Assembly (NCBI GenBank): GCA_030706405.1
Contig: JAUZOO010000001.1
Span: 79,762-143,761 of the forward strand
From: Bacteroidota bacterium
GTDB lineage: Bacteria; Bacteroidota; Bacteroidia; Bacteroidales; JAAUTT01
Direction: 5' to 3'
Length of the DNA: 64,000 bases
Below are positions 8,482 to 49,538 of the stretch, in pieces. Position numbers and translations under genes: made by a program. Below the pieces are notes generated by a model. That model did not search any database. It saw only the letters and a program-made list of their open reading frames with translations, and had not been told where the DNA came from. Positions within the stretch are counted from its first letter, which is position 1. Each line of letters starts with the position of its first letter.

Positions 8482-10158
8482 ATGAATTTAAAGAATCTTA
8501 AACTTAGAACCAAGTTAACACTTGGGTTCGCCAGTATTTCGCTAATTGCGGTAGTGATCGGATTGATTGGCCAAATTGGTATGTCCCGAATTATTAGTTT
8601 TGAAAAAGACATTGCAGATAACAGACTGCCGAGCGTAAAGGTACTCTTGAAGTTGCGCCATGCCCAAACCGCTATGGATGCTGCCGAAAATGTATTTTTA
8701 ACCACAAAAGTTTCGCCTGAACTGCGTGAAGAAACCTACAAACGGATGGATAATGCCAAAGGGCGCATAGACAAAGCATGGGAGACATACGTTAAACTGA
8801 TAACCCCCGAAGAAAAGAAAGACTGGGAAACATTTGTGCCATTATACAACGAATGGTGGAAACTGCATGAACAATATATGGAGATGATTAAAGCATACAT
8901 CACTCATCCTTCCGATACAGCCTATGCCACTTATGTAAAGTTTAACCAATCTGTTTTAAACCCTGCATATAATACCTCAAAGATTTATTTGGATAACCTT
9001 ATTGAGATTAACGATAAAGCTGGACAGGAGTCGTCTATTGAAGCGGATAAGACAAGCTCATCGGCTGTTGTCTGGTTAATTATCTTTATGATTATAGGTA
9101 TTATGGTTTCAGGAATTATCAGCTTGTCCATAACTCGTTCTATTCTTAATGACGTTGGTGGAGAACCCGCAGATATCGCGCTTATTACCAAAGAAATTGC
9201 CGAAGGCGATCTAACTATCAATTTCGATCGACACGGTAAGAAAATAGGTATTTATGGGGCAATCTGGAGTATGACAGACAAGCTTAAAGAGACAATCTCT
9301 GACATTATTTCCGGAGCCGACAACATTTCGGATGCCAGTCAGCAGCTTAGTGGTGTTTCCGAGCAAACCTCACAAGGTGCCAGCGAGCAGGCCTCATCAG
9401 TTGAAGAAGTTTCGGCCAGTATGGAACAAATGGTATCGAGCATTCAACAGAATACAGCTAATGCACAACAAACTGAAAAAATTGCCAATTCTGCTGCTTC
9501 CGGCATTCGCGAGAGCTTTGATGCGGTAGAAGATTCGACCAAAGCCGTTAAAGAAATTGCTGGTAAAATAAAGATTATTAATGACATAGCCTTTCAGACG
9601 AACATTCTTGCGCTTAATGCCGCCGTTGAAGCCGCGCGTGCCGGCGAACAAGGAAAAGGATTTGCCGTGGTAGCCGCTGAAGTTCGTAAACTGGCCGAAC
9701 GCAGTAAACTATCGGCCGATGAAATTGACGTTTTATCGCGCAATTGCGTAACTACTTCGGAGCTGGCTTCGTCAAAACTGGCAGGGATTGTTCCTGAAAT
9801 TGAACGTACTACCAAGCTGGTACAGGAGATTGCATCCTCGAGCCTTGAACAGGCAGGAGGAACCGATCAGGTGAATAATGCCATTCAGCAATTGAACGAG
9901 ATAACACAACAAAACGCAGCGGCCTCCGAAGAGATGGCTACCAGCGCCGAAGAACTTTCGGGTCAGGCAGAGCAGCTTAAATCAGTTGTTTCATTTTTCA
10001 AAATAGATGCTGATGTAAAACGTACCAAACGTACGTCTTCTGTCTCCAAGAGACAACCTCTGCGCCCGAATAATCAAAGACCCCGCCCAGCTATGCCAGG
10101 TGTAAACCTCAACCTGAAAGCCTCTGACACAACGGATAACTATTTTGAAAAATTCTAA
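8482..10158 (+). CDS. Methyl-accepting chemotaxis protein (4HB sensor, HAMP, MA domain)
   Basis: Highly conserved MA hairpin [40 protein letters not shown], two TM segments and a HAMP region. The likely start is the [12 protein letters not shown] Met at 8482; the ORF opens at 8443. Confidence 0.85.
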
Positions 10159-10172
10159 AACATCCTTATTTA

Positions 10173-10209
10173 TAAAAAAGCAAGCGAGACTATCACAGTT
10201 ACGCTTGCT
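10173..10209 (-). terminator. Intrinsic terminator after the susD-like gene
   Basis: 8-bp stem AGCAAGCG (10179-10186) / CGCTTGCT (10202-10209). On the minus strand it is followed by a T-run (A-run 10174-10179 on +). Confidence 0.5.
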
Positions 10210-10233
10210 ATAGAAAAATTATCAGTTAACCAA

Positions 10234-11997
10234 CTAATATCCTGGGTTCTGCCCAAATTCTATACCATTGGATAATGCATCCAGTTCGGTTTGAGGGACT
10301 GGCCGGAGCAGAACGTTCTCGAAATGTCCATTACCCTTTTGTAGAAGATTATCAGGCAAATGAATGTTTTTATTGTATTTCTGTATTCGTTGTGCCAGTG
10401 TACGAGTCCTTTTAAGGTCGAACCATCGCATGTGTTCTCCCGCAAATTCCCGAGCTCGTTCGTCGAGGATGAAATCGAGTGTAATATCGCTTGCAGAGAC
10501 ATTCAAGTCGCCCGAATGAGTTTTGGATGCACGGTTACGGATTACGTTGATATCGATAGCTGCGCTTGCTTTATCTCCTAACTGAAATTCGGCTTCGGCA
10601 GCAATCATGTACATTTCTGCCAAACGGATCATAATAATATCGCGGGTTCCGGGTTGGGCCGTTGCTGAAGTACGCGTAGGGTCGAGGAATTTTTTGAGTG
10701 CAGGAAATAAATCGCAGGTGCTGCGAATGGAGTCGGCTGCATATAAGCTGTCGCGGTCAATTACCACGTATTTACGGGTCCGCTTGTCGGCAATGCTTTT
10801 ATTGGTAATATAAATAGCGGTATCGCCTACATTGATTTTTTGTCCGGCTACGGATGGCAATTTACCCCATGTTTTACAGGTCGCAGCTGTCCAAGTGTAA
10901 GTTGAGCTGTTGTTTTTCCAGGTATCCTGAAATGAGGCTGCATAACGCGAATCCTTGGAGCCATCGAACAAATCAAGCAAAAATTCGGTAGGCATAAAAT
11001 ACATAGATTTTGGGTAACCGTTTGCCATATCAGTAACCATCCCCGGCTTACCGTTATAGTTACAGAGGAACCATAGGTGCAGGCGATTACCGTTTCCATC
11101 CACGTCTATGGAGAGGTTCATGGAGTTGGAAACTACATACAGCGCTTCTTTACAATGCTTATTTCCACTTATAGCGCTGTTATCGTTCAACCACAGGTCG
11201 GAATAATTGGGATAAAGCGAAACACCCCAGTTTGCAGCACTGTCGATGACTGTATGAGCAACTTTTTTTGCACGGGTAAAATAGTCATTAGCTTCGGCGG
11301 TATTGCCTTCATCGAGCGAGTAGTATGCCCTTGTCAATAACACCTTGGCCAAAAGTCCGTAAGCTGATTTTCGAACGGCGCGGCCCAGGTCGGAAGTGGT
11401 GGTTGGCAACCAAAGTTTGGCCGAATCGAGGTCGCTAATCATAAGATTGTAAAAATCCTTAACAGAGCTTCGTTGAGCGGTAAGAATTGGCGAAGTAGTT
11501 TCGGCAGTGCGCAAGCATACTCCTCCCCAGGTTTCGACAATGTGATAATAATAAAAGGCTCTTAAATACCTGAGTTCTCCTTCTTTTTGCTTTCTTACGG
11601 CCTGAGACTGGTAACCGGCATTGTTAATACGTTCGATACCTGCATTGCAGAAGTTTATTCCCGGCCATAAATCGCGCCAGTAGTTGGTGCTCGTTCCGGA
11701 ACTGCTGGAAGTAAAATTGGTATACTTAAATAATTGTGATGCATAGTTACCCTTTTGGTAGGCATACCAAAGGTCGGTGCCAGCTTCGGTCATCAAAGCA
11801 CCGTCTTCCTTTCCCAAAAAATACCGTTGACCGATATACGATGCGTTTATTAATGTTTGAAAACCACTCGGCGTATTCCAAACATTTTCAGCAGTAGCGT
11901 TCGATGGATTATATTCTTCCAGTTTATTACAGGACCACATTCCCGGAATAATCAGGATGAATAAAATATAGATGAGATTGTATTTTATGTTTTTCAT
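10234..11997 (-). CDS. RagB/SusD family nutrient uptake outer membrane lipoprotein
   Basis: 587-aa ORF with a lipoprotein signal (PGMWSC) and TPR-like SusD hallmarks (RAFYYYHIV, LAEMYMIAAEA, RWFDLKR). It sits directly downstream of a SusC-like gene. Confidence 0.9.
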   Translation of the reverse strand: MKNIKYNLIYILFILIIPGMWSCNKLEEYNPSNATAENVWNTPSGFQTLINASYIGQRYFLGKEDGALMTEAGTDLWYAYQKGNYASQLFKYTNFTSSSSGTSTNYWRDLWPGINFCNAGIERINNAGYQSQAVRKQKEGELRYLRAFYYYHIVETWGGVCLRTAETTSPILTAQRSSVKDFYNLMISDLDSAKLWLPTTTSDLGRAVRKSAYGLLAKVLLTRAYYSLDEGNTAEANDYFTRAKKVAHTVIDSAANWGVSLYPNYSDLWLNDNSAISGNKHCKEALYVVSNSMNLSIDVDGNGNRLHLWFLCNYNGKPGMVTDMANGYPKSMYFMPTEFLLDLFDGSKDSRYAASFQDTWKNNSSTYTWTAATCKTWGKLPSVAGQKINVGDTAIYITNKSIADKRTRKYVVIDRDSLYAADSIRSTCDLFPALKKFLDPTRTSATAQPGTRDIIMIRLAEMYMIAAEAEFQLGDKASAAIDINVIRNRASKTHSGDLNVSASDITLDFILDERAREFAGEHMRWFDLKRTRTLAQRIQKYNKNIHLPDNLLQKGNGHFENVLLRPVPQTELDALSNGIEFGQNPGY

Positions 11998-12020
11998 AAT
12001 CTTAAAGTTTGGCAGGTTAA

Positions 12021-15000
12021 TCAGAAATCAACATTTACTCCAAAAATGAATTGTTTGCTCATGGGGAATTTTTCTGACCCGCTGTTTTCGGGGTCGTAAT
12101 TCTTAACAAGGTGACTGTTGGTTATTGTCAAAAGGTTCGATGCTGTTACATAAACCCTCAGCTTCTCCATAAAAAACTTTTTAGTCAATCTGGCAGGAAG
12201 AGTGTAACCCAACGAAACATTCTTGACTTTAAAATAGGAACCATCAACAAAATAAAGCGAATAATAACCGGTATAACTGCTGAACGTTGCTCCCTGGAGG
12301 GGTCTTGGAAAGTCATTCGTAGGATTGGAAGGAGTCCAGTAATTAATAAATGCAGGTCCGTTGCCGCTTCCCGAAGGATTATAGCGGCCCAATAAATCGT
12401 CACTAATCATTTGTCCCCAACGCACAAAACAATAAACGCTAAGATCAAAACCTTTATAGGCTACTTTGTTTTCAAAACCCATTTCCCATTTTGGAGATTT
12501 AGAACCAATGTATGTTCGGTCATTGGTATTAATGACAGTATCCCCGTTCATATCGGCCAATTTAATATCGCCGGGTTTAAATTTGGTGGTCTGTTTTGGA
12601 TTTATAGCCTTCAGTGTCAGCGAATCTGCAGTTTGCCAGATACCCAGTTTCTTATATGTATAAATAGATCTTACCGGACGCCCTATTAACAAGGAGTTTT
12701 CTTCTGCACTTTTCCCGTTATAAGCAATCAAGTCGGTATTACCTACAAGTCTGGTAATTTTCTCCTGATTGGTAGAAAATGTTACGGCTGAAGTCCATCG
12801 AAAATTTTTAGTTTCTACGTTTACCGAGTTAATGGCAATTTCAATACCCTTATTTTCAGTAGCTCCCATGTTCTTATAAACAGTAAATGTCGATTTTGAC
12901 GATGTTCCTCCCGTAGAAACCGGCAATGCCTGAGCTAAAAGCATATTGTCGGTAACGGTTTTGTAAACATCGATGGTTGTACTTAAGCGACCTTTAAATA
13001 TTCCGAGATCCAACCCGATGTTGGTTGTTGTGGATCTTTCCCATCCCAGGTCTTCATTTGCAAGAGAGGAAATATATGAATAGGCAGGTGCCGCATTCTC
13101 ACCAAATGACATGTTACTGGCAGGTGCAATCCCGCTTTGTGTTGAATAGGGATTTATATTTGCATTACCCGCAACTCCATAACTTAATCTTAACTTAAGT
13201 TCATTAATTACATTTATATTCTTCATAAAATTTTCATCGGCAACTCTCCATGCAAAAGCGGCAGAAGGAAATGATGACCATTTTTTAGTCAAAACGGAGG
13301 ATCCATCCAAACGATTGGATAAGGTGACCAAATATTTTCCTTTGTAACTATAATTAATTCTTCCTCCGTACGACATGTTTTCCATTTTGGAGTAATTCGA
13401 ACTAATATTACGCGAGGTAACCTGTGTTGCATTTAAGTTATAGAATAATTGTCCGGGTAAAGCCTGTTTAATCCCGTCTTCCGAATAAGTTTCGGCAATG
13501 AGCTTGTTGTAACTTGTCAACGCTGTGATGGTAAACGAATGGTCGCCAATGGCTTTAGTATAGGTTGCAATGTTGTCCCAAACAATATTCCGCGAATTTG
13601 AATTGATAACATTGGCATAGCTGGTACCCATCGCTGACCGGGCTAACGAAAGGGAGTCGTTAAATATGCCTTCGCGGGTGTTTACCAGGTTTACCCCCAT
13701 ATTGGAACGAAGAGTCAGCCCTTTCAGAGGAGTAATTTCGAGATAACCACTGGCGAATATCTTCGTGCTTAACACGTTGTCGGCAGCTGCATTGGGTCGT
13801 AAATCGGACAAGGGCGATATCGTTGAATTATCTCCGGCTATCGGGTGAACGATGATATTCCCATATTCGTCGTATGGAACACCAAGAGGACTTATCGAAT
13901 TAGCCGTAGCAAGAGGGTCTTGCTTCTTATTTTGATTAAAATGGGTTACCTGGGTTTGCATTCCGGCTTTGGCCCAATTGTTAATCGTATGGTCAACGTT
14001 TACACGACCGTTAAAACGGGTATAATCGTCTTTTACGGCCCCAACTTCTTTAAAATAACCTGCAGAGAGATACGATTGTGTTTTCTCTGTGCCCCCGCTA
14101 ACGGACAATTGATGACTGGTCAGAGAACCGTTGTTCAGAAGAAGTTTATCCCAGTTTACCCATTGCCCTGCTTGCATCGCATTCCATTCCTGGGTTGTAA
14201 ACATTGCCTGGTCGGAGGTGTAAGTGTTATTGGCTTTATAGGCTTCGCGACGGAATGCAATATAATCGTCTCCCATTCGTCCGTAAGGATAAGAAGTAAG
14301 CCCGTTTACTCCGTAATAACCATTGTACGAAACTTTGGTTTTACCGGCCTTTGCTTTTTTGGTAGTGATGATAATAACCCCGCCGGCACCCATGTGCCCG
14401 TAAATTGCCGTAGAAGAAGCATCTTTCAGAACCTCAACCGATTCGATGTCATTAGAACTTAAATCGGAATAATCTCCTCCTTGAATACCGTCGATGATGA
14501 CAAGCGGTTTATTGGCTCCTACGTTTAATACATCGACAGTACGGGTACCACGGATTGAAATATTTACACCAGCCCCGGCAGCCCCGGAACTGCGTACAAC
14601 GTCCATGCCGGGTATTTTTCCCTGGATAGCTTCCATTACATTGCTGGTAGGCGCCTTTACAATGTCGTCGGCTTTAACCGAGCTTACCGAACCGGTAAGA
14701 TCTCGTTTTTTTACGGTTCCATAACCGATAACTACAACTTCATCCAGTTTTTGAACATCCGGAGTAAGTTTTAGGTCGAGTATCGATTGTCCGGCAGCTT
14801 TAACTTCTTGTGAAAAATAACCAACATATGAAAACATCAATATTGCATTGGGATCGGAAACCTCAATGGTGAATTTACCTTGAATATCGGTTATAACCCC
14901 TGTTGTTGTACCTTTTACAATAATGCTTACGCCCGGGAGGGTTTCGCCCGTGTTTTTATCGGTAACCGTGCCTGTTATTTTTTGCTGAAGCATAACTCCC

Positions 15001-22788: not shown

Positions 22789-22803
22789 GCAACTTGCTTG
22801 AAA

Positions 22804-22840
22804 TAAAAAAGGGCTAATCTCATTGAGGTTAGCCCTTTTT
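22804..22840. terminator. Bidirectional intrinsic terminator between convergent genes
   Basis: Stem GGGCTAA (22811-22817) / TTAGCCC (22829-22835), flanked by an A7 run and a T5 run. Confidence 0.7.
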
Positions 22841-22841
22841 A

Positions 22842-23393
22842 CTAATATGCCGACATCATCTTTGCGGCAACATCTTTAGCTTTTTCTTTGTTAATAAGCA
22901 CTTCGACAAGTGCAAACGAAAATTTTAGTGAAGAACCGGCACCATTACTGGTAATGATTTTGCCATCTTTTTCAACAGCACTGCCTGTTGGTGTAGCTCC
23001 AAGAAGATCTGGCTCTGTACCCGGATAACAGGTAGCCTTCTTCCCCTTCAATAAACCTAAATGACCTAATACCATTGGCGCGGCACAGATCGCTGCCAGC
23101 CATTTGCCATTCTTTTCGGCTTCCACAAGTTTCTCCTTTAATCCTGCATGTTCATCGAGATGTTTAGATCCTGGCATACCGCCGGGAAGAACCAGCATAT
23201 CGACGTCGGAATAGTTTACTTCTTCAAAAAGTTTATCGGCAACAACAACAATGCCGCGCGAACTTTTAACCTGCTGTTTTCCTGTTACCGACACCATGGT
23301 TACTTCGCAACCGGCACGGCGAAGAACATCAACAGGGGTGAGGGCTTCAATCTCTTCGAAACCATCGGCGAGGTGTACAAATATCTTTTTCAT
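22842..23393 (-). CDS. DJ-1/PfpI family protein
   Basis: 183-aa ORF with the nucleophile-elbow Cys context (LAAICAAP) and the LPGG motif typical of DJ-1/ThiJ/YajL proteins. Confidence 0.85.
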   Translation of the reverse strand: MKKIFVHLADGFEEIEALTPVDVLRRAGCEVTMVSVTGKQQVKSSRGIVVVADKLFEEVNYSDVDMLVLPGGMPGSKHLDEHAGLKEKLVEAEKNGKWLAAICAAPMVLGHLGLLKGKKATCYPGTEPDLLGATPTGSAVEKDGKIITSNGAGSSLKFSFALVEVLINKEKAKDVAAKMMSAY

Positions 23394-23490
23394 AATATAT
23401 CTTTTTGATAATTAACAACTAGGAATAGCCTTGTTTGTAATTAAATTCGAAATGTAAAGATATTGAGTATTGATGACTTTTAAAATCCGG

Positions 23491-24234
23491 TTATACCTTT
23501 CGGCTGGTATTGTAATAAGTAATCCACCTGTCGATGTGCTCCCCATATTGTACAAGGTTCCAGTCATTCTGGGTTGTACGCCTCGGTGAACCAGCATTAT
23601 ACGTAGCTGCAAGCAAAGGTAACTGATTGTGATGCAGGGAATAATATTTATTGAAATAATCAACAGCTAACTGGGCAGCAACGAGCGATTGCGTCGGCAG
23701 GGTCAATACCAGCTCTGTAATGCGGGCTTCCTTGTCGGGAGCCTTGCTCCATCCTTTTATTTGTAACGCAGTGGATATAAGCATGTGGTGTCCACCCAAC
23801 GATACCCGATGAGGGGTGTTTATCGGATTTATGTAACCCGGTTCGCGCCGTTCGAGGTAACGTGTAGGCTTTGAATTACCAATATGCCGAACAATACTGT
23901 CGAGTTTGGAGCCGGTATCCATGCCGGTTGTTTGCTGTAATTTTTTCGACAGGTCGGAATGATCCATTGGCGAAGGCACCGTACCTAGCGACTCTGTCAT
24001 CGCATTGGCGGTAAGAATATCAACAGCGGTGCCAAATTCGTCGAGTTTACCGAATTTCAGTTTTCCAAGGTAAAACGCTTTAACCCGTCGAACGTTTGCC
24101 AAGGCTGAAGCTAATTTACAGTAATCGGGAATATTGTTTTCGGAACCGATTTCGCAGAGGTAGTGAGGCGATTTAACACGCCAGCGTTTTCCGTTCTCGA
24201 ACCGGAACCAGCCATCTTCAAATTTGTGTAACAT
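23491..24234 (-). CDS. Lytic-transglycosylase (SLT)-like protein without signal peptide; last gene of a four-gene cassette
   Basis: 247-aa ORF with an E-S motif (ANAMTESLG) and a downstream ATYNAGSPR, resembling the SLT/goose-lysozyme ES...AYNAG signature. No N-terminal hydrophobic segment. It overlaps the upstream gene by 17 nt. Confidence 0.5.
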   Translation of the reverse strand: MLHKFEDGWFRFENGKRWRVKSPHYLCEIGSENNIPDYCKLASALANVRRVKAFYLGKLKFGKLDEFGTAVDILTANAMTESLGTVPSPMDHSDLSKKLQQTTGMDTGSKLDSIVRHIGNSKPTRYLERREPGYINPINTPHRVSLGGHHMLISTALQIKGWSKAPDKEARITELVLTLPTQSLVAAQLAVDYFNKYYSLHHNQLPLLAATYNAGSPRRTTQNDWNLVQYGEHIDRWITYYNTSRKV

Positions 24235-24607
24235 GAGCGTCTTTTTTAGGGTCGTTCAATTTCACCTCTTCCACGTATTTATCGCCCTCGCGTTTTATGG
24301 TAAGTTCACAACAAATGGCTTTAGGGTTAGCCGGCTTTGCCAGCGTGTAATGCCATTCGTCGGAGACTTTTTGTTGCAGGATGCTAAACCACAACTTTTT
24401 CCACCACGAAGCCTTTCGGGGAACAAGGTACAGCGTAAATTTCAGCTCCCCAATTCCCAAAAAATTATTATCCGAAAGGTAGAACTCGTGGTATTCGTCC
24501 TTTAACAAATCCTTAAACGCACTGCGCTGGGCCAAAATAAAATTAGCATTAGCCAAATGCGCTTCGCGGCACAGACCGTGTATGAGGTCGTCGAGTTTAA
24601 CCTGCAT
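24218..24607 (-). CDS. Hypothetical protein (129 aa), possibly a divergent short paralog of the two upstream genes
   Basis: ORF translationally coupled to the upstream gene (TGATG, 1-nt overlap). Its N-terminal helix (DDLIHGLCREAHLANANFILAQ) and beta stretch (ELKFTLYLVP) loosely echo the DUF2589-like pattern. Confidence 0.55.
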   Translation of the reverse strand: MQVKLDDLIHGLCREAHLANANFILAQRSAFKDLLKDEYHEFYLSDNNFLGIGELKFTLYLVPRKASWWKKLWFSILQQKVSDEWHYTLAKPANPKAICCELTIKREGDKYVEEVKLNDPKKDAHVTQI

Positions 24608-25152
24608 CAGGAATTCTGGGCTTCGGGAAGGGCCTTAGACAATGCCGAGAGCAGCCGTGCCAAACCTTCGGGTATAGGAGCTTCGCTGGCATGTATGGTT
24701 ATTTCGAGTGAACCACTACGATTCGTACTCGACTCTTCGGCCGATTTGCTCGACACATTGCCTTTTAACGAAAAATTGAGAAAAGGTATCGATTTCAGGC
24801 TTCCATCTACATCAAAACCACAATTTGCCTCTTTTGAATTCTTACTTACCTGCGATATCTCGTACTTAAAATGCGTGGTAAATGAATCAATCCGCATGTG
24901 AGGCACCGGCACCATCGATAAAAGCGGAGCGCTGATTTTTACTTCTTTGGTGGCATCTCCGTCCTGCACATTGAGCGAAAGGTCAATCGTGGTAGGCTTC
25001 CCATCTTTTATCAACGAGTTGATATAAGCCTGAGTAGCCGTTGCTGCCGCAGCCTGGGCTTTAATAACGCCTAAAAGCGGGGCTGCAATAATGTTTTCGA
25101 GAGGTAGTGCCTGAAATTCGGCGGCCGGTAAAAAATTAACGTCATCTGCCAT
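24607..25152 (-). CDS. DUF2589-like protein (181 aa)
   Basis: LPLENIIAAPLLGVIKAQAAAATAT N-terminal helix, ISAPLLSMVPVPHMRIDSFTTHF core and LEITIHASEAPIPEGLARLLSAL C-terminus. I recall this as the DUF2589 (PF11655) pattern; unverified. Confidence 0.65.
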   Translation of the reverse strand: MADDVNFLPAAEFQALPLENIIAAPLLGVIKAQAAAATATQAYINSLIKDGKPTTIDLSLNVQDGDATKEVKISAPLLSMVPVPHMRIDSFTTHFKYEISQVSKNSKEANCGFDVDGSLKSIPFLNFSLKGNVSSKSAEESSTNRSGSLEITIHASEAPIPEGLARLLSALSKALPEAQNS

Positions 25153-25163
25153 AATGGTATAAT

Positions 25164-25784
25164 TTAGGGATTAATATGATTCAACTCGGTCGATTGATTG
25201 AGGGTCGTCAGTAGTTTGTCGAGTCCTCCGGGAAGAGGCTGTTTGCTAACCTTTATTTTTATTTTAATGGATTGAGACGCTTCGGTCGATTTTTCGGAGC
25301 TTGGAGCCATTTGACCCCGCAAACTCACAGGGTTCTGAACCAAATACCAGGGACGGTTTTGTTTAAAATTTTCGGGTTCTTTATCAAGCGTTTTTTCTTC
25401 GGAAACTTGCACCTGTCGGTGACTATCGATACTACTAACTTTGAAGTCGAATTCAAATTCGCCCGAATCGATGGCCAGAGGGTTTACCGGAAGTAGAGCC
25501 AACGTTGGGATACGAATCTCAAAACTTTCGGTTTTGCCATCCACAACTCTATCAAAGCGAAAATCCTGGGTATAAACGGATTGCTTATCTTTTTTGGCTT
25601 CTTCGGTAACAAAACCGTCTTGACCAACTTCGAGGTGAGGATAGCCAATCTGAAGCAGATAACTAAGAAAAGAGCGGCCGGCATGTATCTGCGCTTTGAA
25701 CAGGGAGTTGAGCGGAGCCAGAATAGCTTGCGAAAGAGACATCTCGCTTGAAGCAGATGGTGTTGACATTGGGCTAGAATCCAT
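25164..25784 (-). CDS. DUF2589-like protein, paralog (206 aa)
   Basis: It shares with the downstream gene the motifs [IL]xAPLxxxxKAQ, IxxPxLxxxPVxPxxIDSxxFxF and IxIxxSxxPxPxGLxxLLxxL, seen as QAILAPLNSLFKAQ, IRIPTLALLPVNPLAIDSGEFEF and IKIKVSKQPLPGGLDKLLTTL. Confidence 0.65.
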   Translation of the reverse strand: MDSSPMSTPSASSEMSLSQAILAPLNSLFKAQIHAGRSFLSYLLQIGYPHLEVGQDGFVTEEAKKDKQSVYTQDFRFDRVVDGKTESFEIRIPTLALLPVNPLAIDSGEFEFDFKVSSIDSHRQVQVSEEKTLDKEPENFKQNRPWYLVQNPVSLRGQMAPSSEKSTEASQSIKIKIKVSKQPLPGGLDKLLTTLNQSTELNHINP

Positions 25785-26003
25785 TGTTTAAACTTTTAAC
25801 CCAAAAATAGCAATTATAATCATAATTAAAACATACACAATGTAATATTTATAGTTATAACACCATAAAAACCAAAAACTAAACAAACAAGACATGGGCT
25901 ATCCCATATCCTCCGTTGGTCGCCCATCATGGAAATTCCAGCACTAATTAATATAAGGGATTACACAAAAAATGAAAGTGTTAAGAAACAATAACGCCTA
26001 GCG

Positions 26004-27662
26004 TTATTGATCGTCGAATTGCTTCAGTTGACTGCGCAGTTCCTCGATAGTCCGCAGCAGTTCTTGTTCCCTACGGTCGGATTGCTCCTGCGTTGCCCGT
26101 AATTCTTCAACGTTCTGGCGGGTTTCTTCTTCCTGGGTAGCCAGCTCCTCCGTCTGGACGCGCGACTGCTCCAAAAGTTTGGTTGTATGCGTATTAATCT
26201 TTACCGACGAAAGTGTTGCAGCAATAATCTCGGCTATTTTTTCTACAAATCCAATTTGGTACGGTTCAAACTCATTAAACGAAGCCACCTCAATCACCCC
26301 GAATACCTGATCATTCATCATCAGCGGGACCAACAGCAGGCTGCGCGGAGTTGCATCGCCAAGCCCTGAATTAATTCGGGTGTAATTATCCGGAATTTCG
26401 GTAAGGTAAATGGTTTCCTTTTCGAGAATACACCTCCCGGTAAGTCCCTCGTTCATTTCAATACGCTTTTCGAAAAATTTGCGGCGGTTATAAGCGTAAC
26501 ACGAAATCAGCTCAATAAAAATATCGGATTTGTTATTATCGTTTATTACAAAGATTCCACCCTGATTGGCATTAAGATATTCTACAAGGTTACTGATGAT
26601 ATTGTATGAAAGGATGTCAAACTTGTCGTTGTCCTGCCGCATAATATCACTGAATTTAGCCACACCAGTGGTTGCCCAGTTGCGGTGTTCGTCTTCGAGT
26701 TTACGCTTAGCTTCTTCGTCGGCTGCGGCTTTAAGGTCGTCGCGCATTTGCAGAAGGGCATTACCAAGTACATCACTGTCTCCCAAAGGTTTAAAATTAT
26801 TGTTATAGTTACCTCGTCCAATTTCGAGAGCAAACCCCGACAATGCTCTAAGCCTCGATACCAGTTCATTCAAAGCCTTTGACATTTCACCGATTTCGTC
26901 ATTACGCTCCCTAATTTTATTTTCGGGCAAAATTCCTTTACTCATCGATTGAATAACCTTTTTGATATGCTCAATGGAAACAACCAGCGAACGTACTGAA
27001 AAAAAAGCTATCATTATCGATAACACGATGAGACAGATACAGGTAATGGCTATAAAATGAGATAATCTCGCATAGGATTTGTCAACAGTTGTACGCGAAT
27101 CCTGAATATGAATCTGTTGGTGTTTTACGAGTTCGTCGGTGAGCAAGAGAATTTTTTCAGAAGCCTTGGTTATCGGGCCGTTAGCTGCTACAGCCGGAGC
27201 AATAGAGGCCATCAGGGCCGAGTTATTATAGTTCGCAGGAGTGACTAACCGATCGGTTATCGAAATTTGCTGTGCAAAAAGAGAGTCGGTTAGAGCAAAA
27301 ACCTTTTTTAGCTCTATTTGATCAGTGCTATCCCAATCATCAGAAACAACCAATAAGTCGTGCTTCAGCTTTATAAAATCTTCTTCGTGAATTTTTTTCA
27401 GGCGTAGTTTATCCGGGGTATTAGGAGTTTTGTCAGCATATACCCAGTTTTTCAACAATAATTCCGATGAATTAACCTGATCGCGTAACGAAGTCAGAAG
27501 CCGTTCGGAAGGATGATAAATTAACCGGATATTGTCATTCTCCTGCCTGTTTTTCTTTACAAATGAATTAACCAACAGCGTATTAATGATGAGCGCAAGT
27601 GTCAGAATGCTAAAGCCAATGGCAATTTTGGCTGTTATTTTAAAGGTTATTTTTTTCTTCAT
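26004..27662 (-). CDS. Membrane-anchored HAMP + GAF domain protein with C-terminal coiled coil
   Basis: N-terminal TM, a sensor region, a second TM, HAMP (NDEIGEMSKALNELV), a GAF-like domain (LLLVPLMMNDQVFGVIEVASF) and a Glu/Arg/Gln-rich coiled coil. No kinase, cyclase or other output domain recognised. Confidence 0.75.
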   Translation of the reverse strand: MKKKITFKITAKIAIGFSILTLALIINTLLVNSFVKKNRQENDNIRLIYHPSERLLTSLRDQVNSSELLLKNWVYADKTPNTPDKLRLKKIHEEDFIKLKHDLLVVSDDWDSTDQIELKKVFALTDSLFAQQISITDRLVTPANYNNSALMASIAPAVAANGPITKASEKILLLTDELVKHQQIHIQDSRTTVDKSYARLSHFIAITCICLIVLSIMIAFFSVRSLVVSIEHIKKVIQSMSKGILPENKIRERNDEIGEMSKALNELVSRLRALSGFALEIGRGNYNNNFKPLGDSDVLGNALLQMRDDLKAAADEEAKRKLEDEHRNWATTGVAKFSDIMRQDNDKFDILSYNIISNLVEYLNANQGGIFVINDNNKSDIFIELISCYAYNRRKFFEKRIEMNEGLTGRCILEKETIYLTEIPDNYTRINSGLGDATPRSLLLVPLMMNDQVFGVIEVASFNEFEPYQIGFVEKIAEIIAATLSSVKINTHTTKLLEQSRVQTEELATQEEETRQNVEELRATQEQSDRREQELLRTIEELRSQLKQFDDQ

Positions 27663-41336: not shown

Positions 41337-41411
41337 GGTTCCATAGTTCAATGGATAGAACGACAGTTTCCTAAACTGTAAATTCGGGTTCGATTCCCGG
41401 TGGGACTACCA
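41337..41411 (+). tRNA. tRNA-Arg (anticodon CCT), CCA encoded
   Basis: Manual cloverleaf fold. Acceptor GGTTCCA/TGGGACT has two G-U pairs. D arm is GTTC-AATGGATA-GAAC. Anticodon arm is ACAGT-TTCCTAA-ACTGT. T arm is TCGGG-TTCGATT-CCCGG, with discriminator A plus CCA. Confidence 0.85.
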
Positions 41412-42921
41412 CATAGGACAAGTTGTTATTATTAACTTCTTGTCCTTTTTTATTTTCTGCAAAATCCGCACCAACACTACAAAGTAAAGTTAGCAATTCG
41501 TTAGGTTGTGTGGTTCGATAAGTATTATTCTCAAATACCAGTTTTTCAGGAAATATCAAACCAATCATTTTTTGCTTACCCTCTAAAGTTGCATTACTAT
41601 AATAAGTAGGTAAGTTGCTCAGTAATGAAACACCATATTTGCAATACTCCATAAATCCACTTTCAGCCCTTTTCAGTTCATCAATTCGTAAGCGAATTTC
41701 TGAACATTCCTTTGAAAGGTTTTCCTTTAGTCTTTTATATGCATACTTGTCTAATTCATCATTAACAAGTTTTTCGGCTGCTTTGTCCATTGTGGCAAGC
41801 TTTTTATTATACTCAGCTTCCAAGCGTTTAATTTCAGAGTCCCGGTCGCCTTCGTTCGTTTTAAAAACGTCCTCCATTATAGCCAAATACAATTGAGCCA
41901 CTTCAGGTTTGAAAGAAATATCACTTAGCCAGTTTTCAAATGTTTTATGTGCAACATCCGTTTTATAACGTTCTTTGCATCCCGGTTGACAGTGATAATA
42001 AAAGTATTTGCCACCATTACCATTTGAGGCACTACCTGTAAGGTTTTTACCACAGCAGCTACAAACTAAATAACCTCGCATAGGTAATTCATCCCTTGTT
42101 TTCGATTGCTTTGCTTTAATAGTCTTTTTACCATCAAGTACATTCTGCACTTCATAAAATAATTCCTGGCTGACAATAGGTTCGTGAATACCTAAAACGA
42201 TTTCTTCCGGCTCATCCCTATAAGCTTTAACTCTTATTTTGCCACAATAAACAGGGTTTCGCAATAAAGCCCAAAACTGGTTTTTACCAATATTCAAACC
42301 TTGTTTGTTCATTTCTTTACGAAGAACATCTATTTGCCAGGTTGCAGTTGCATAATATTCAAAGGCTTTCTTTATTAAATTAGCAGCTTCGGTTTTAACC
42401 AAAATTGGTTTATTAAAAGCATCACGGGCATTTTTATAACCAATAGGTGCAGTACTAACCCAGCGGCCTTCCTTCATGTTCTTGCGCATTCCGTTTAAAG
42501 TATTCAATGCCCTTCGGTCGTTTTCAACCTCTGGCAAAGACAAGTAAAACGAAAGCATAATTTTTTGTTCGGGAACTCTTAAATCGATTGGTTGTTCAAC
42601 TGCATTTACCTCAACACCCATTTTAGCAAGCTTGTCAATCATTCTATATGCCTCTGGTGCATTGCGGCTAAATCTGTCCCAACGTACAATGAGCAATTTA
42701 GTAACCAAACCTTTGTTACTTTTAAGAAATTCAAGGACTTTTTTAAACTCCGGTCTGTCATCAAAATTCTTGGCAGAGTAGTCCTCAGTGAAACACATAA
42801 CAACATTGTCGCCCGAATACTGGCAAAATTGTTCTAAACGTTCTTTCTGATATGGCAAGCTGGTTCCTTTTGCAGCTTGTTCGTCGGTCGAAACCCTTGT
42901 ATAAATAACTACATTAGCCAT
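41371..42921 (-). CDS. Large serine recombinase (resolvase/invertase N-domain + recombinase domain + zinc ribbon)
   Basis: VVIYTRVSTDEQ catalytic-Ser motif, a recombinase domain, a Cys-rich zinc ribbon (CSCCGKNL...YYHCQPGC) and a coiled coil. The last ~27 codons are encoded by the tRNA terminator and the tRNA 3' end, so the native C-terminus is uncertain. Confidence 0.85.
   Translation of the reverse strand: MANVVIYTRVSTDEQAAKGTSLPYQKERLEQFCQYSGDNVVMCFTEDYSAKNFDDRPEFKKVLEFLKSNKGLVTKLLIVRWDRFSRNAPEAYRMIDKLAKMGVEVNAVEQPIDLRVPEQKIMLSFYLSLPEVENDRRALNTLNGMRKNMKEGRWVSTAPIGYKNARDAFNKPILVKTEAANLIKKAFEYYATATWQIDVLRKEMNKQGLNIGKNQFWALLRNPVYCGKIRVKAYRDEPEEIVLGIHEPIVSQELFYEVQNVLDGKKTIKAKQSKTRDELPMRGYLVCSCCGKNLTGSASNGNGGKYFYYHCQPGCKERYKTDVAHKTFENWLSDISFKPEVAQLYLAIMEDVFKTNEGDRDSEIKRLEAEYNKKLATMDKAAEKLVNDELDKYAYKRLKENLSKECSEIRLRIDELKRAESGFMEYCKYGVSLLSNLPTYYSNATLEGKQKMIGLIFPEKLVFENNTYRTTQPNELLTLLCSVGADFAENKKGQEVNNNNLSYVVVPPGIEPEFTV
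41415..41452 (+). terminator. Intrinsic terminator of the tRNA-Arg gene
   Basis: 8-bp stem AGGACAAG (41415-41422) / CTTGTCCT (41439-41446), followed by TTTTTTATTTT. Confidence 0.65.
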
Positions 42922-43066
42922 TTTTACTACGTTTTTGTGCAGTGAATAACTGATAATCCAAATTGCCCAGTTTATAGAGCATTTGCCTGATTTGCTTTAC
43001 TTGTTCGTCTGTGTAACTTTTTCCGTTCTGTTGTAAAATCTTTTTACAAGTTTCTAAATTTAACAT
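42914..43066 (-). CDS. Small ORF (50 aa) translationally coupled to the serine recombinase
   Basis: Hand-translated as MLNLETCKKILQQNGKSYTDEQVKQIRQMLYKLGNLDYQLFTAQKRSKNG. Its stop overlaps the recombinase start by 8 nt (ATGGCTAA). It falls below the ORF-track size cutoff. Confidence 0.4.
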   Translation of the reverse strand: MLNLETCKKILQQNGKSYTDEQVKQIRQMLYKLGNLDYQLFTAQKRSKNG

Positions 43067-43126
43067 CTACTTAATTGCTGCACCTCAACCCCGGGGCTTC
43101 CGGTAGTATAGGCTATCTGCAATTTA

Positions 43127-43981
43127 TCAGGGGGCATCCCTTTTTATCTTTTTCTTTGTTTTTCTAACATATTCAACAATTTCGCCATTTTCCTGCACTA
43201 CTTCAATGGTTGCAAATTGCTGTTCTTTTAATATGTCATGTATTTTTTTGCATGCTTTAAAACGTTCTACACCTTCTATAAGGTCAATCTTTCCGTTTTT
43301 ATATCGAACTTCAATTTTCTCATAATTAGCAACCCTCAGAAATGCCAGCAATTCTACTTCGCCAATATCTAAAGGCAATTCCCCTTTGTATTTCGGTTTC
43401 AAATCAGCATTTGGGAAAAAGCTTTGAAGAATTTCGTTGAGGTTAATTTGCAGGTGGTTTTCTATGCTTTTAAACTCACGGGCTATTTTATACTGGCTGT
43501 AATTGGCAGGTACGGCCACACCATCCTTAAAAACCAATAGCAAAACAGGCATTTTATTACCAATAGCAAAGGCTGTATAAAATTCTAATAATGGCATAGC
43601 TACACCACATTTAGCACTTTCAAACTCCAAACTTTGTTTGGTAATTTTCAATTGTTCCCAACCCATACCAAACTCACGTAGTTCTTTAATAATACGCACC
43701 CAGATAGCGTCTAATATTGTAAACCTTCGCCAGCCCCGGCCCTCACGGTCGCCAATTAATAAACCTTCTTTTTCCCAGCTATTTAATTGCCTATACGTTA
43801 CAGATTCGAGCTTAACATTTCGCTCCCTATTATTGAGTATTTGAGATATTCTATTGTTTTTTAAGTCAGTAAAGTAGTTATAAAATCCACTTTCAAATGC
43901 ATCATTTCTGTAAAGGTCAACTGCCTCATTTCCTTTTTTTTCTATATTTGTAGTTGCACCCATTTCAGTTGGATATTTCAA
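43127..43981 (-). CDS. MerR-like HTH domain protein with unknown C-terminal domain
   Basis: The segment VTYRQLNSWEKEGLLIGDREGRGWRRFTILDAIWVRIIKELREFG resembles a MerR-type HTH-wing. The remaining ~170 aa are unassigned. Confidence 0.55.
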   Translation of the reverse strand: MKYPTEMGATTNIEKKGNEAVDLYRNDAFESGFYNYFTDLKNNRISQILNNRERNVKLESVTYRQLNSWEKEGLLIGDREGRGWRRFTILDAIWVRIIKELREFGMGWEQLKITKQSLEFESAKCGVAMPLLEFYTAFAIGNKMPVLLLVFKDGVAVPANYSQYKIAREFKSIENHLQINLNEILQSFFPNADLKPKYKGELPLDIGEVELLAFLRVANYEKIEVRYKNGKIDLIEGVERFKACKKIHDILKEQQFATIEVVQENGEIVEYVRKTKKKIKRDAP

Positions 43982-44002
43982 TACACAAATATAATAATTT
44001 TA

Positions 44003-44014
44003 TACCATATGGTA
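44003..44014. promoter_or_regulatory. Perfect 12-bp palindrome TACCATATGGTA in the divergent promoter region
   Basis: It lies between the divergently transcribed MerR-like gene (start 43981) and the 290-aa gene that leads the R-M operon (start 44071). Confidence 0.4.
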
Positions 44015-44070
44015 AGATTTATTCTATATAATTTTAAGTTATTTTGACCAATGTAAAAACCTATTAATCA

Positions 44071-44943
44071 ATGCCTAATAATCAAAAACTAACCCTGCCA
44101 AAGCAAGCCAACTTTGAAGTATTCCGTTATCAATTAGTAGTCGATAAAGTACTGCAACTAAACATGTACGATTATAAATCGGCTGAAGACATTCGAGCTG
44201 ATAAAAACAAAATCTTACAAAAGCTTATTACAGATGATACTTTCAAGTTCTACAACTCGCAATCCGAAATATATTCCAAGTTACTACATACCAACGGCAC
44301 GTTAAGTTATTTCAGACTTGGGGTTAAACGAAATACTAAGGTTTTTAAAAAAGATTTCTCCGAAGATTATATAGAAAATTATCCCAACATTATTGTTGCA
44401 ATAAATAACGACCCCAACGTTCAAAAGATAGCAATACAAAGCAATACACATGCATTTCAGGATTGCAACACGGTAAGTCATATTATTCAAAAGACGATTG
44501 ACCCAAAGATTAAAAAAAGCAATCTTTCTTTTTTTGTTGAACCACTATTCGACAAACAAGAGTTTTGGAATTTGATTAAAAAATATCCAAAACAGGTGAA
44601 ACAGGTAACATTTAACCTCATTTCGCCCAACCTAGCCAACATATCAAAAAACCTAAAACTCGACCTCAAAAGTCTTTATGAAGACACCAATACATTAAAA
44701 ACAAAGGTTGAGTTAAATGCTGATGAGGAAAGTTATCTAGATATAAAAGAAAACAGTACGTTTGTAAATAGCCTCGTTGATTATAGTGCCGATGGTGGTG
44801 GAAATATTCAAATGCGGGTGAAAGGCATACGAAAAGCTTTACATACTGCTCAATCTCCAAGCGATTTTAATGTTGATGAACTATTGTTAAAATCAGAGAA
44901 CTGGGACGAGTTGGATAGATTATTTAATGATATTTTGATATAG
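44071..44943 (+). CDS. Hypothetical protein (290 aa), first gene of the R-M operon
   Basis: Long ORF with island-like AT-rich codon usage, ending 28 nt upstream of hsdR. No motif recognised. Confidence 0.6.
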   Translation: MPNNQKLTLPKQANFEVFRYQLVVDKVLQLNMYDYKSAEDIRADKNKILQKLITDDTFKFYNSQSEIYSKLLHTNGTLSYFRLGVKRNTKVFKKDFSEDYIENYPNIIVAINNDPNVQKIAIQSNTHAFQDCNTVSHIIQKTIDPKIKKSNLSFFVEPLFDKQEFWNLIKKYPKQVKQVTFNLISPNLANISKNLKLDLKSLYEDTNTLKTKVELNADEESYLDIKENSTFVNSLVDYSADGGGNIQMRVKGIRKALHTAQSPSDFNVDELLLKSENWDELDRLFNDILI

Positions 44944-44971
44944 AAATTTATTAAAAAGTAGATTAAAAATA

Positions 44972-47752: not shown

Positions 47753-47753
47753 G

Positions 47754-49538
47754 ATGGAGAAAGAGATTATTTCAAACACAATTAATGAGGTGCCGAAAGG
47801 CTGGATAGTTGCTAAACTCAGTGACATGGTAGTTGACCCAAAAAAAGATTTTGTTGACGGCCCTTTCGGCTCAGACTTAAAGGCGAGTGAGTATAAAGAT
47901 GAAGGCGTTCCAGTTTTTAGAATACAAAATATAAAAGCAGGTTATTTTTTAGATAAAAATATTCAGTTTGTTACAAAACAAAAGGCAGAACAACTTAAAA
48001 GACATTCCTTTAAACAAGGAGATATTATTATTACTAAACTTGGAGAACCATTAGGCTTATGTTGTAAAGTTCCTCATAAGTACCCTGAAGGAATAATTGT
48101 TGCTGATTTGATGAGGGTACGTCCAAGTCCAACAATAGTAGATACTGATTATTTAGTATATGCTATTAATAGTAAAATAATTCAAGACCAATTTAAAAAT
48201 ATTACAAAAGGAACAACCAGAGCTAGGGTAAACCTATCAATTGTAAGAGATATTGAAATTCCTATTGCACCTGCAAGTGAACAGAAAAGAATAGTAAATA
48301 AACTGGAAGAACTAATCAGCGAATTAGAAAAGGGGAAGGAGCATATACAAATATCTTTAGAACAATTACGAGTTTATAAGCAATCCGTTTTAAAATTTGC
48401 CTTTGAAGGAAAATTAACTGAAGAATGGCGCAATAAACAAAAAAAGCTAAAAACTCCAAATGAACTAGTTGCTGAAATTAATAATGAAAGAGAAAAAAAA
48501 TACAACAACCTATTAAGTAATTATAGAGAAGGCTTAACAAAAGTAAAACCGCAAATTCCCAAAGAAATCAGCCTAATTTCCCAAAATGAATTACTTGAAT
48601 TACCTAAATTGCCAGATGGTTGGTGTTGGATAAAAGTTGCGTCCTTAGGAGCTATCGAAACAGGAACAACTCCAAGTAAAACAAGACCTGATAATTTTGG
48701 TGTTGACTATCCCTTTTTTAAACCAACGGAACTAAATGCAGGTTATAATGTAAGAGAAGCAACAGAATATTTATCAGAAAAAGGAATAAAAAGTGCTAGA
48801 TTTTTACCTATTAATTCAATTTTAGTTACTTGTATTGGTGCTACAATTGGAAAAGCTGGAATAATTAGGCGTTCAGGCGCAAGCAATCAACAAATAAATG
48901 CCATAATACCATATGAGATTTTCAACCCTAATTTCATCTATTTTCAGGTAATTAGTCGGTTTTTCCAAGACCAGATAAAAAATAATGCAGCTGCGACCAC
49001 TCTTCCTATACTTAATAAATCAAAATTTGAAAATTTGTATTTTGCAATTTGTTCTAATGAAGAGCAAAATATATTAGTCAATGAATTAGATAATAAATTT
49101 TCCAATTGTGAGAACTTGGAAATAACTATAAACCAATCATTACTAAAATGTGATACTTTAAAGCAAAGCATATTGCAGAAAGCATTTAAAGGTAAATTAG
49201 TGAAACAAGAGCCAAGTGATGAATCAGCTGGTGTTTTACTAGATAGGATAAAAAAGGAAAGAGAAGAATATATAAAAAATGAAAAAGAAAAGGCCACTAA
49301 TCTTAAAAAGATGAAACCTAAAGAAATAATAAATCAAAAAGACTTATCACTTAAAGAGATTATATATAATTCATTCTCTTATGGTGAATTTACATTTAAT
49401 GAGTTAAGACGGGTTGTAGAACTTAACTATGACGATTTAAGAGATGAACTTTTTAAGCTGCTTGATGAGGGTATATCAATTGAAATGTATTTTGATAAAA
49501 TGGAGGAAGTAATGAAATATAAATATATTGGCAAATGA
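47754..49538 (+). CDS. hsdS: Type I restriction-modification specificity subunit S (long form, 594 aa)
   Basis: Two target-recognition domains, each followed by a conserved helix (IAPASEQKRIVNKLEELISELEKG...; CSNEEQNILVNELDNKFS...LKQSILQKAFKGKLV). An extra ~100-aa tail follows. Confidence 0.88.
   Translation: MEKEIISNTINEVPKGWIVAKLSDMVVDPKKDFVDGPFGSDLKASEYKDEGVPVFRIQNIKAGYFLDKNIQFVTKQKAEQLKRHSFKQGDIIITKLGEPLGLCCKVPHKYPEGIIVADLMRVRPSPTIVDTDYLVYAINSKIIQDQFKNITKGTTRARVNLSIVRDIEIPIAPASEQKRIVNKLEELISELEKGKEHIQISLEQLRVYKQSVLKFAFEGKLTEEWRNKQKKLKTPNELVAEINNEREKKYNNLLSNYREGLTKVKPQIPKEISLISQNELLELPKLPDGWCWIKVASLGAIETGTTPSKTRPDNFGVDYPFFKPTELNAGYNVREATEYLSEKGIKSARFLPINSILVTCIGATIGKAGIIRRSGASNQQINAIIPYEIFNPNFIYFQVISRFFQDQIKNNAAATTLPILNKSKFENLYFAICSNEEQNILVNELDNKFSNCENLEITINQSLLKCDTLKQSILQKAFKGKLVKQEPSDESAGVLLDRIKKEREEYIKNEKEKATNLKKMKPKEIINQKDLSLKEIIYNSFSYGEFTFNELRRVVELNYDDLRDELFKLLDEGISIEMYFDKMEEVMKYKYIGK

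Follow-up and report, generated by a model that had tools for sequence, protein, structure and literature searches.

Within a 64,000-nt stretch of a Bacteroidota genome (contig JAUZOO010000001.1, forward-strand positions 79,762 to 143,761; hereafter the window), we analyzed a compact cassette of four genes, A to D. A and B encode paralogous DUF2589 proteins, C a small protein of a separate family, and D a divergent enzyme of the SLT superfamily. Judged from the sequences of related loci, the conserved unit is A-B-C, and the enzyme is an interchangeable or dispensable add-on to this core. An initial annotation of the window, made by a model without database searches, had missed both this swappable partner and the replacement of the wall hydrolase by a SIR2 protein in one lineage.

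We favor reading the cassette as a mobile module for the triggered suicide or lysis of its host cell, with effectors that can be exchanged, and assign this reading a probability of roughly 0.4. Whatever its function, the cassette is probably a module that has not been described before.

The A-B-C core and its changing partners

We seeded our survey of partner genes from B rather than D, which removes bias towards D, and retained 30 unique loci with enough flanking sequence. D stands alone downstream of C in 11 of these loci, and in nine more it occupies the same position fused to Peptidase_M15_3 or DUF5675. Three loci instead have another wall hydrolase directly 5′ of A (PG_binding_1+CHAP, PG_binding_1+Peptidase_M15_4, or Peptidase_M15_4). 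The others contain a membrane-anchored 272-aa protein that we call E (two loci), a 575-aa SIR2_2 protein encoded 5 nt after C between housekeeping genes (one locus), a 266-aa gene 5′ of A (one locus, L071), or nothing recognizable beside the core (three loci, including that of the cultured Hahella sp. CCB-MM4). A wall hydrolase is therefore adjacent to the core in 23/30 loci. Because wall hydrolases make up ~1% of bacterial genes by our own estimate, finding several unrelated hydrolase classes beside one core at this frequency is far beyond chance.

The initial annotation had reasoned that a wall enzyme made without a signal peptide needs some route to the wall. This need is strengthened by the relatives, in which four other kinds of wall hydrolase adjoin the same core. 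The hydrolase partners are leaderless, yet several carry PG_binding_1, and must therefore act outside the membrane. No immunity-like gene is conserved beside D in the loci examined.

In the lineage with the SIR2_2 protein (L073 4200-7693, L074 4353-7543 (GC 69%)), this protein takes the place of the wall hydrolase and gives weak PADLOC matches to ThsA and LmuA. Gene A of L074 has an internal deletion, leaving 144 aa versus 245 aa. Wall hydrolases and SIR2 NADases have in common that they kill the cell that produces them, so the replacement of one by the other points to killing, and not wall remodelling, as the output of the cassette.

The two copies of E (272-274 aa; L054 2024-2842 and L094 6041-6865) lie in D's position after C, are 43% identical to each other, and feature an N-terminal hydrophobic anchor and conserved Cys residues. 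Neither E nor the 266-aa gene of L071 matched anything in Pfam, PHROG or the PDB. The Hahella locus (L025 7299-9084) has A-B-C without D, near alpha-2-macroglobulin/PBP1C genes and a beta-lactamase-family gene. At a Nitrospirae locus (L017 4538-5944), two genes intervene between C and D, one for a leaderless protealysin (Peptidase_M4 plus a protealysin propeptide) and one for its inhibitor emfourin; this insertion, a single case, may bear on how protealysin-like proteases exit the cell.

Partners of this kind could also be served by a non-lethal export route, in which A-B-C would form or control a Sec-independent passage resembling type 10 secretion, leaderless enzymes would exit through it, and D would open the wall locally. 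Most partners are indeed leaderless enzymes that act extracellularly, several of them with PG_binding_1; the protealysin and emfourin of L017 look like cargo, and the anchored E sits where D would otherwise be. However, the core lacks a membrane segment, an ATPase and an outer-membrane component, and a SIR2 protein that acts in the cytoplasm would make no sense as cargo at the effector position. With the protealysin insertion seen once and core-only loci lacking a cargo gene in cis, we consider export doubtful.

Features of the four proteins

Both A and B are full-length members of DUF2589 (PF11655, gathering cut-off 23 bits). A scores 60.8 bits (E 2.6e-16, residues 17-198 on profile positions 2-154) and B 85.3 bits (E 7.4e-24, residues 17-173 on profile positions 1-153). 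Their paralogy, first proposed from shared motifs, is borne out by BLASTP (29% identity, E 1e-10) and by hhalign comparison of the A-family and B-family profiles (probability 98.8%, E 7e-17). The motif pairs quoted in that proposal are present in A/B (ILAPLNSLFKAQ / IIAAPLLGVIKAQ, IRIPTLALLPVNPLAIDS / ISAPLLSMVPVPHMRIDS and IKIKVSKQPLPGGLDKLL / ITIHASEAPIPEGLARLL), with one deviation, in that B reads PVPxxxIDS and not PVxPxxIDS. In A, a conserved LSQAILAPLxxxFKAQ helix precedes a beta core rich in Pro, a PxPxGLxKLL helix lies towards the C-terminus, and the tails at both ends of the protein are variable.

B is the most conserved member of the core, its orthologs being 44-77% identical across phyla. 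Orthologs of A, which are placed 5′ of B in nearly all loci, are 37-53% identical to one another, and A-B identities across loci reach only 21-30%. Because every A resembles the A's of other loci more than it does any B, and the same holds for B, the two are separate orthologous lines that arose by an old duplication, with both copies retained. The retention of two distinct lineages side by side suggests that A and B form a hetero-oligomer.

The AlphaFold2 (AF2) model of B has a mean predicted local distance difference test (pLDDT) score of 65 and consists of a helix (18-46), a hairpin (55-76), a long low-confidence hairpin and a second helix (163-174). Fold searches of the PDB gave no significant match for this model, and the sequences of A and B have no relative of solved structure there. 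Among the structures in BFVD, one match was significant (E 6.9e-6), namely an unnamed viral protein of 178 aa that is presumably a further member of the DUF2589 family. A role of B as a beta-barrel pore former is not supported: its long hairpin has pLDDT <50, conserved Ser/Lys/Glu residues occupy the hairpin's center, and matches to pores and toxins had E >1. A, B and C are likewise without a match in PADLOC, PHROGs and NCBIfam. A full-text literature search returned no functional study of DUF2589, only two passing mentions in expression lists from Bacteroides fragilis and Archaeoglobus fulgidus.

C had been put forward as a possible third paralog with a loose echo of DUF2589. Its features are a helix at the N-terminus (LxxLxxxLxxExxxAxAxFxLxQ), beta strands and an amphipathic segment rich in Trp (ASWWKKLWFSI). 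Membership in DUF2589 is supported neither by BLASTP, which produced no alignment with B, nor by hhalign, which gave probabilities of about 1% or less (0.2-1.1%) for the C-family profile against those of A and B. Nor does C match Pfam (E <= 1), NCBIfam, PADLOC or PHROGs. A hidden Markov model (HMM) built from 23 C sequences identifies exactly one open reading frame (ORF) right after B at every locus with enough sequence, D-less loci included. By this measure C is a genuine conserved family of its own. We also discarded the idea that C confers immunity to D, since A-B retain C no matter whether they are partnered by D, CHAP, M15_4, SIR2 or nothing.

The likeness of D to SLT enzymes, noted initially from two short motifs, holds at the level of profiles, although D itself falls below the Pfam cut-off for SLT (PF01464; 12.1 bits against 21.3, covering residues 186-218 only). 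Searching 1.84 billion representatives with a D-family profile (E <= 1e-3) gave 447 matches, of which ~13 are full-length D and ~210 match the C-terminal 125 residues only. We scanned 100 of the distant matches (E 1e-38 to 1e-15): SLT was present in 98 (best E 3.8e-20) and PG_binding_1 in 17. One bridging protein, P0109, scores above the SLT cut-off (30.1 bits) and is 37% identical to residues 129-242 of D.

Both of the short motifs, T-E-S and ATYNAGSPR, are found in D. E81 and S82 of the former are at least 90% conserved in the D family; E81 aligns with the invariant motif Glu of the SLT relatives, and the AF2 model of D puts it at the end of helix 70-82. In the latter, at about 209-217, the Y, N and A are invariant in 39 D-family members. 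The joint alignment of D and its SLT relatives has invariant positions at R129, E131, P132, G133, S145, G147, Y212, N213, A214 and G215, with E131 located in an R-x-E-P-G-Y motif and constant in D and the SLT relatives alike. The G-L-M-Q motif is not kept: where relatives have G-L-M-Q-T-L, D has G147-G-H-H-M-L (G-[GA]-H-H-x-L in the family), so that only the G and the final L are shared. A helical insertion of ~40 residues (87-126), between T-E-S and R-x-EPGY, further sets D apart from these relatives.

The model of D is of high confidence (pLDDT 97.2). A Foldseek comparison, proposed with the initial annotation, placed no PDB fold at significance for either B or D; the top ranks for D were the SPN1S endolysin, Slt/Slt70 and GH19/GH23 chitinases (best E 0.07, TM-scores 0.3-0.4). 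By sequence, D has no relative in the PDB. Its N-terminal beta-hairpin was dismissed as a cassette-specific docking domain, since the W18 region is common to ordinary SLT relatives outside the cassette. We propose that D is a divergent SLT-superfamily (GH23-type) lytic transglycosylase or muramidase with E81 as the putative catalytic residue, and that it is probably enzymatically active. A compact, confidently modelled and unusual SLT variant, with HH for MQ and a 40-residue insertion, is of enzymological interest in itself.

In some relatives, D is fused to Peptidase_M15_3 or DUF5675, the latter described in a recent preprint as structurally similar to the C82 (L,D-transpeptidase-type) peptidases of lysins. 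Bifunctional proteins that join a glycosidase to a peptidase resemble antibacterial effectors and the lysins of virions or conjugation systems. This raises the alternative of an interbacterial weapon, in which the hydrolase would be an antibacterial toxin, similar to a bacteriocin or delivered in vesicles, and A-B-C would serve to carry or release it. The patchy distribution of the cassette and the carriage of a related version on mobile elements very common in human-gut Bacteroidales would fit. Against it, D has neither a conserved periplasmic immunity gene nor a delivery machine beside it, a free wall hydrolase is unable to cross the Gram-negative outer membrane, and the SIR2 variant would need access to the cytoplasm of the target. 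We think a weapon quite unlikely.

Hydropathy and inspection of the N-termini agree with the initial annotation that A-D have neither membrane segments nor signal peptides. Every 19-residue Kyte-Doolittle window falls below the 1.6 threshold for a membrane helix, with maximum means of 1.13 for A, 1.56 for B (in its Ala-rich N-terminal helix) and 0.78 for C, and no N-terminus of the four resembles a signal peptide. A cytoplasmic location is predicted for all four proteins, of which A and B have an acidic pI (5.6 and 5.2) and D a basic one (9.5).

A shared cytoplasmic location would also suit the absence of any joint mechanism, with D working in muropeptide recycling inside the cell or the DUF2589 proteins acting as mere inhibitors or chaperones of D. 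The acidic A and B and the basic D are compatible with simple binding or inhibition, and cytoplasmic wall-recycling peptidases exist. Lytic transglycosylases, however, need polymeric glycan, and partners of the core carry the sacculus-binding PG_binding_1. The core persists without a hydrolase and with SIR2, and the 44-77% identity of B across phyla speaks for an independent function. Such an explanation is highly improbable in our view.

Genomic setting and distribution

The four genes are co-directional (Table 1) and tightly coupled, exactly as initially described: an 11-nt gap separates A from B, B and C overlap by 1 nt (TGATG), and C and D overlap by 17 nt. The region 5′ of A is likely the promoter of the cassette. 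It contains two terminator-like hairpins, which close the upstream HAMP/GAF-type gene, and, 17 nt ahead of the start codon of A, a TATTTTTG box matching TAnnTTTG, which we take to be a candidate Bacteroidota -7 element. A scan of this region for sigma-70 promoters gave nothing above shuffled expectation, as expected for Bacteroidota.

Table 1. Features of the cassette, its upstream region and the defence island of the window (window coordinates)
Feature	Position	Strand	Length	Description
Gene A	25784..25164	minus	206 aa	DUF2589
Gene B	25152..24607	minus	181 aa	DUF2589
Gene C	24607..24218	minus	129 aa	own family, without Pfam match
Gene D	24234..23491	minus	247 aa	divergent SLT-superfamily enzyme (putative)
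Intergenic region 5′ of A	25785..26003	minus	219 nt	likely cassette promoter region
Hairpin 5′ of A	26009-25989			terminator-like
Hairpin 5′ of A	25912-25889			terminator-like
TATTTTTG box	25809-25802			candidate -7 element
Defence island	41337-55933			low GC (28-36%), beside tRNA-Arg(CCT)

The GC content of the cassette (~0.44) equals that of the neighboring genes. The native-looking composition remarked on initially is thus real, and says only that the cassette is not a recent arrival in this genome. Pieces of A, B and D, together with flanking genes (window 22800-26300), are matched at 97-100% identity by contigs of four metatranscriptome runs that share one coded organism or sample type, with depth on the cassette pieces similar to that on the flanks. 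Given these identities, the organism of the window or a close relative is present in those samples and is probably transcriptionally active there.

D occurs in 21/185,579 species-representative genomes, with hosts in Bacteroidota, Beta- and Gammaproteobacteria, Nitrospirota, Syntrophus and other Deltaproteobacteria, Calditrichota, and one metagenome-assembled genome labelled Actinomycetota. The order A-B-C is kept across these 21 genome loci, where D comes next, and the metagenome loci, in line with the earlier expectation that the cassette would be conserved as a unit across relatives. The flanking genes differ each time, including in the closest relative (D 67% identical). Because of this rarity and these non-syntenic flanks, the description of the cassette as core-genome does not hold; it is a rare accessory module spread by horizontal transfer.

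Some copies lie in recognizably mobile or defensive surroundings. The cassette is found on a satellite-like island (AlpA, DUF3987) at L028 and adjoins a QatA/PifA-like KAP NTPase at L003, and at L034-L036 a DUF2589 module lies next to a relaxase on a mobilisable element. At L013 (3680-4813), A and B of a cassette that is complete in other respects are split apart by an OrfB/TnpB gene of the IS605 family, whose 377-aa product contains a Cas12f1-like TNB domain. This insertion, the protealysin-emfourin pair of L017 and the loss of A in the lineage nearest the window are signs of turnover. A plasmid collection contained only two distant DUF2589 matches, both on Vibrio replicons, and no D. On pFP31 of Vibrio tubiashii FP17 (L095 5392-9651), a distant DUF2589 pair has a gene for a 'peptidoglycan-binding protein' 1.6 kb away on the opposite strand.

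The window also has a clear defence island elsewhere (Table 1). Besides genes for a MerR regulator and a large serine recombinase, it has a type I restriction-modification (R-M) system (HsdR, HsdS, HsdM) in which hsdS and hsdM are separated by an AAA_21/AAA_15 ATPase gene and a 354-aa gene. After the R-M genes come a 202-aa ORF and an AbiEii toxin gene.

A phage or tailocin origin, offered initially as a domesticated lysis or release module, was rejected after several searches gave essentially nothing. None of A-D matches PHROGs. Across 50,697 phage records there were 0 matches to D and one weak match to B, and 2.9 million viral contigs contained no true D and only two distant DUF2589 proteins. 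No tail, sheath or capsid gene lies near the cassette in the window.

A distant version of the DUF2589 genes is abundant in gut Bacteroidales, with 1998 related proteins in human-gut metagenomes, one of which appears in 427 index blocks. The genes of this version (L030 1-4044; L034-L036 ~8900-13900) are, in order, a LytTR regulator, a 182-aa gene, a 283-aa DUF2589 protein with a C-terminal extension, a 259-aa gene, a 203-aa DUF2589 protein, a 76-aa zinc ribbon, a 159-aa gene and a PG_binding_1+Muramidase protein. The 259-aa middle gene has no detected similarity to the C HMM. One copy was deposited as an unverified 'Bacteriophage sp.' scaffold. The abundance of this version on mobile elements of gut Bacteroidales gives it possible relevance to gut community dynamics.

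This gut variant lies downstream of an Mfa-type fimbrial operon and adjoins relaxase/MobC genes. Such a position between the two could speak for specialized wall remodelling on behalf of an envelope-spanning structure or mobile-element function, comparable to VirB1, with the DUF2589 proteins as structural or scaffold subunits. The SLT superfamily to which D is assigned includes specialized enzymes of this sort, and the fold echoes of the B model, none of them significant, are ring- or tube-forming proteins with long hairpins. The window and most loci, however, have no secretion, pilus or conjugation genes nearby, VirB1-type lytic transglycosylases normally carry signal peptides, and the SIR2 and core-only variants do not fit. 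We regard remodelling as very unlikely.

A possible self-lysis module among known systems

We return to the favored reading of a triggered suicide or lysis module. Under this proposal, A, B and C would be made in the cytoplasm together with the effector, which the core would keep harmless. A trigger, most plausibly phage infection or else another envelope or cell insult, would lead the core to activate or free the effector. For the cassette of the window, this would mean that the core compromises the inner membrane, much as a holin does, and that D then reaches and cuts the sacculus; with SIR2 as the effector, NAD+ destruction would be turned on by the same core. The core itself would probably be membrane-active, and an activity of its own is implied by the existence of core-only versions. 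Physical interaction among A-B-C-D, membrane gating, lethality and phage as the trigger are all inferred components of this scheme.

We prefer this reading because the effectors are lethal to their own producer, the hydrolases have no leader, no immunity gene accompanies them and the core can stand alone. Tight gene coupling, a private promoter region, the retained A-B-C order, the frequency of adjacent wall hydrolases and the mobile, accessory distribution of the cassette lend further support.

Several observations weigh against it. Hydropathy shows the core to be free of membrane-spanning segments, and searches of Pfam, NCBIfam, PADLOC, PHROGs and the PDB detected in it no domain for pore formation, enzymatic activity or nucleotide sensing, leaving the gating step without structural support. 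The long beta-hairpin of the B model is of low confidence, and its center is a conserved polar stretch and not a membrane hairpin. None of A-D matches the 5027 defence models of PADLOC-DB v2.0.0 (E <= 1). The SIR2 variant represents a single lineage, and the core-only loci (Hahella, L060) and the anchored partner E fit other readings too. In the Bacteroidales lineage nearest the window (L004, L037 4926-6638, L038), A is absent and only B-C-D remain; here B and D are 77% and 64% identical to those of the window, and B adjoins an outer-membrane beta-barrel gene encoded on the opposite strand. A distance of 16 kb separates the cassette from the window's defence island, to which it does not belong. 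About a dozen contexts could be annotated, of which ~2-3 are defence- or mobile-element-like and the rest mostly housekeeping, in a sample that is small and without a background model. Finally, the metatranscriptome contigs are of low depth and may include DNA, making the evidence for transcription weak. Any probability left beyond the favored reading and the four alternatives set out above belongs to some other explanation.

A bolder version of the gating step is that soluble A, B and C assemble on demand into an inner-membrane breach or conduit, kin neither to holins nor to known secretion systems. We hold this to be a long shot. If it were true, folded leaderless enzymes (wall hydrolases and perhaps protealysin) would reach the envelope via A-B-C, and DUF2589 would found a new membrane-gating or protein-release machinery, transferred from environmental bacteria to human-gut Bacteroidales.

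Under any of these readings, DUF2589 gains its first concrete, testable context, as part of a three-gene core that crosses phyla and is tied to enzymes that destroy the wall or NAD+. Should the cassette act in abortive infection, wall hydrolases would be added as an effector class, under a sensor core without known domains. Should it be a release device, it would explain the holin-free exit of some leaderless muralytic enzymes.

Four groups of known systems resemble the cassette in part. D shares with family-1 SLT/GH23 enzymes (Slt70, MltE, VirB1-type and phage virion enzymes) the E-S position, R-x-EPGY, AYNAG and flanking W/H/N residues. It differs from them in its score below the Pfam SLT cut-off, its 40-residue insertion, G-x-H-H-x-L in place of GLMQ, its operon with DUF2589 and its lack of a signal peptide or lipobox.

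At the level of the whole cassette, type 10 secretion likewise pairs, on the chromosome and outside phages, a wall hydrolase with accessory proteins and releases leaderless proteins. It is holin/muramidase-dependent, as with Serratia chitinase, Salmonella typhoid toxin and C. difficile TcdE (PMC10516005, PMC12150058). The holins there are bona fide ones with membrane helices, which the cassette lacks, and the cassette has no conserved cargo gene.

Phage holin-endolysin(-spanin) cassettes are similar in combining a leaderless muralytic enzyme with small non-enzymatic partners in overlapping, co-transcribed frames. In these, too, the enzyme class swaps (glycosidase, amidase or peptidase) as the partners stay constant, and the enzyme depends on the partners for access to the wall. 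By contrast, A-B-C have no membrane-spanning helix, the defining property of holins, and the cassette shows no PHROG similarity, lies outside phages and prophages among housekeeping flanks, and has no spanin-like lipoprotein.

Abortive-infection systems such as Thoeris, CBASS, Lamassu and Avs differ from the cassette in that it has no PADLOC match and its core contains no recognizable sensor, signalling-nucleotide or NTPase domain. To our knowledge, wall hydrolases are not an established class of abortive-infection effector. The likeness lies in a sparse distribution through horizontal transfer across phyla, with some copies of the cassette on mobile elements or beside defence genes, and in the combination of a constant multi-gene core with variable cell-killing effectors, SIR2 among them. 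In the cassette and its relatives, the interchangeable effectors on the constant core are D, D+M15_3, D+DUF5675, CHAP, M15_4, muramidase and SIR2_2.

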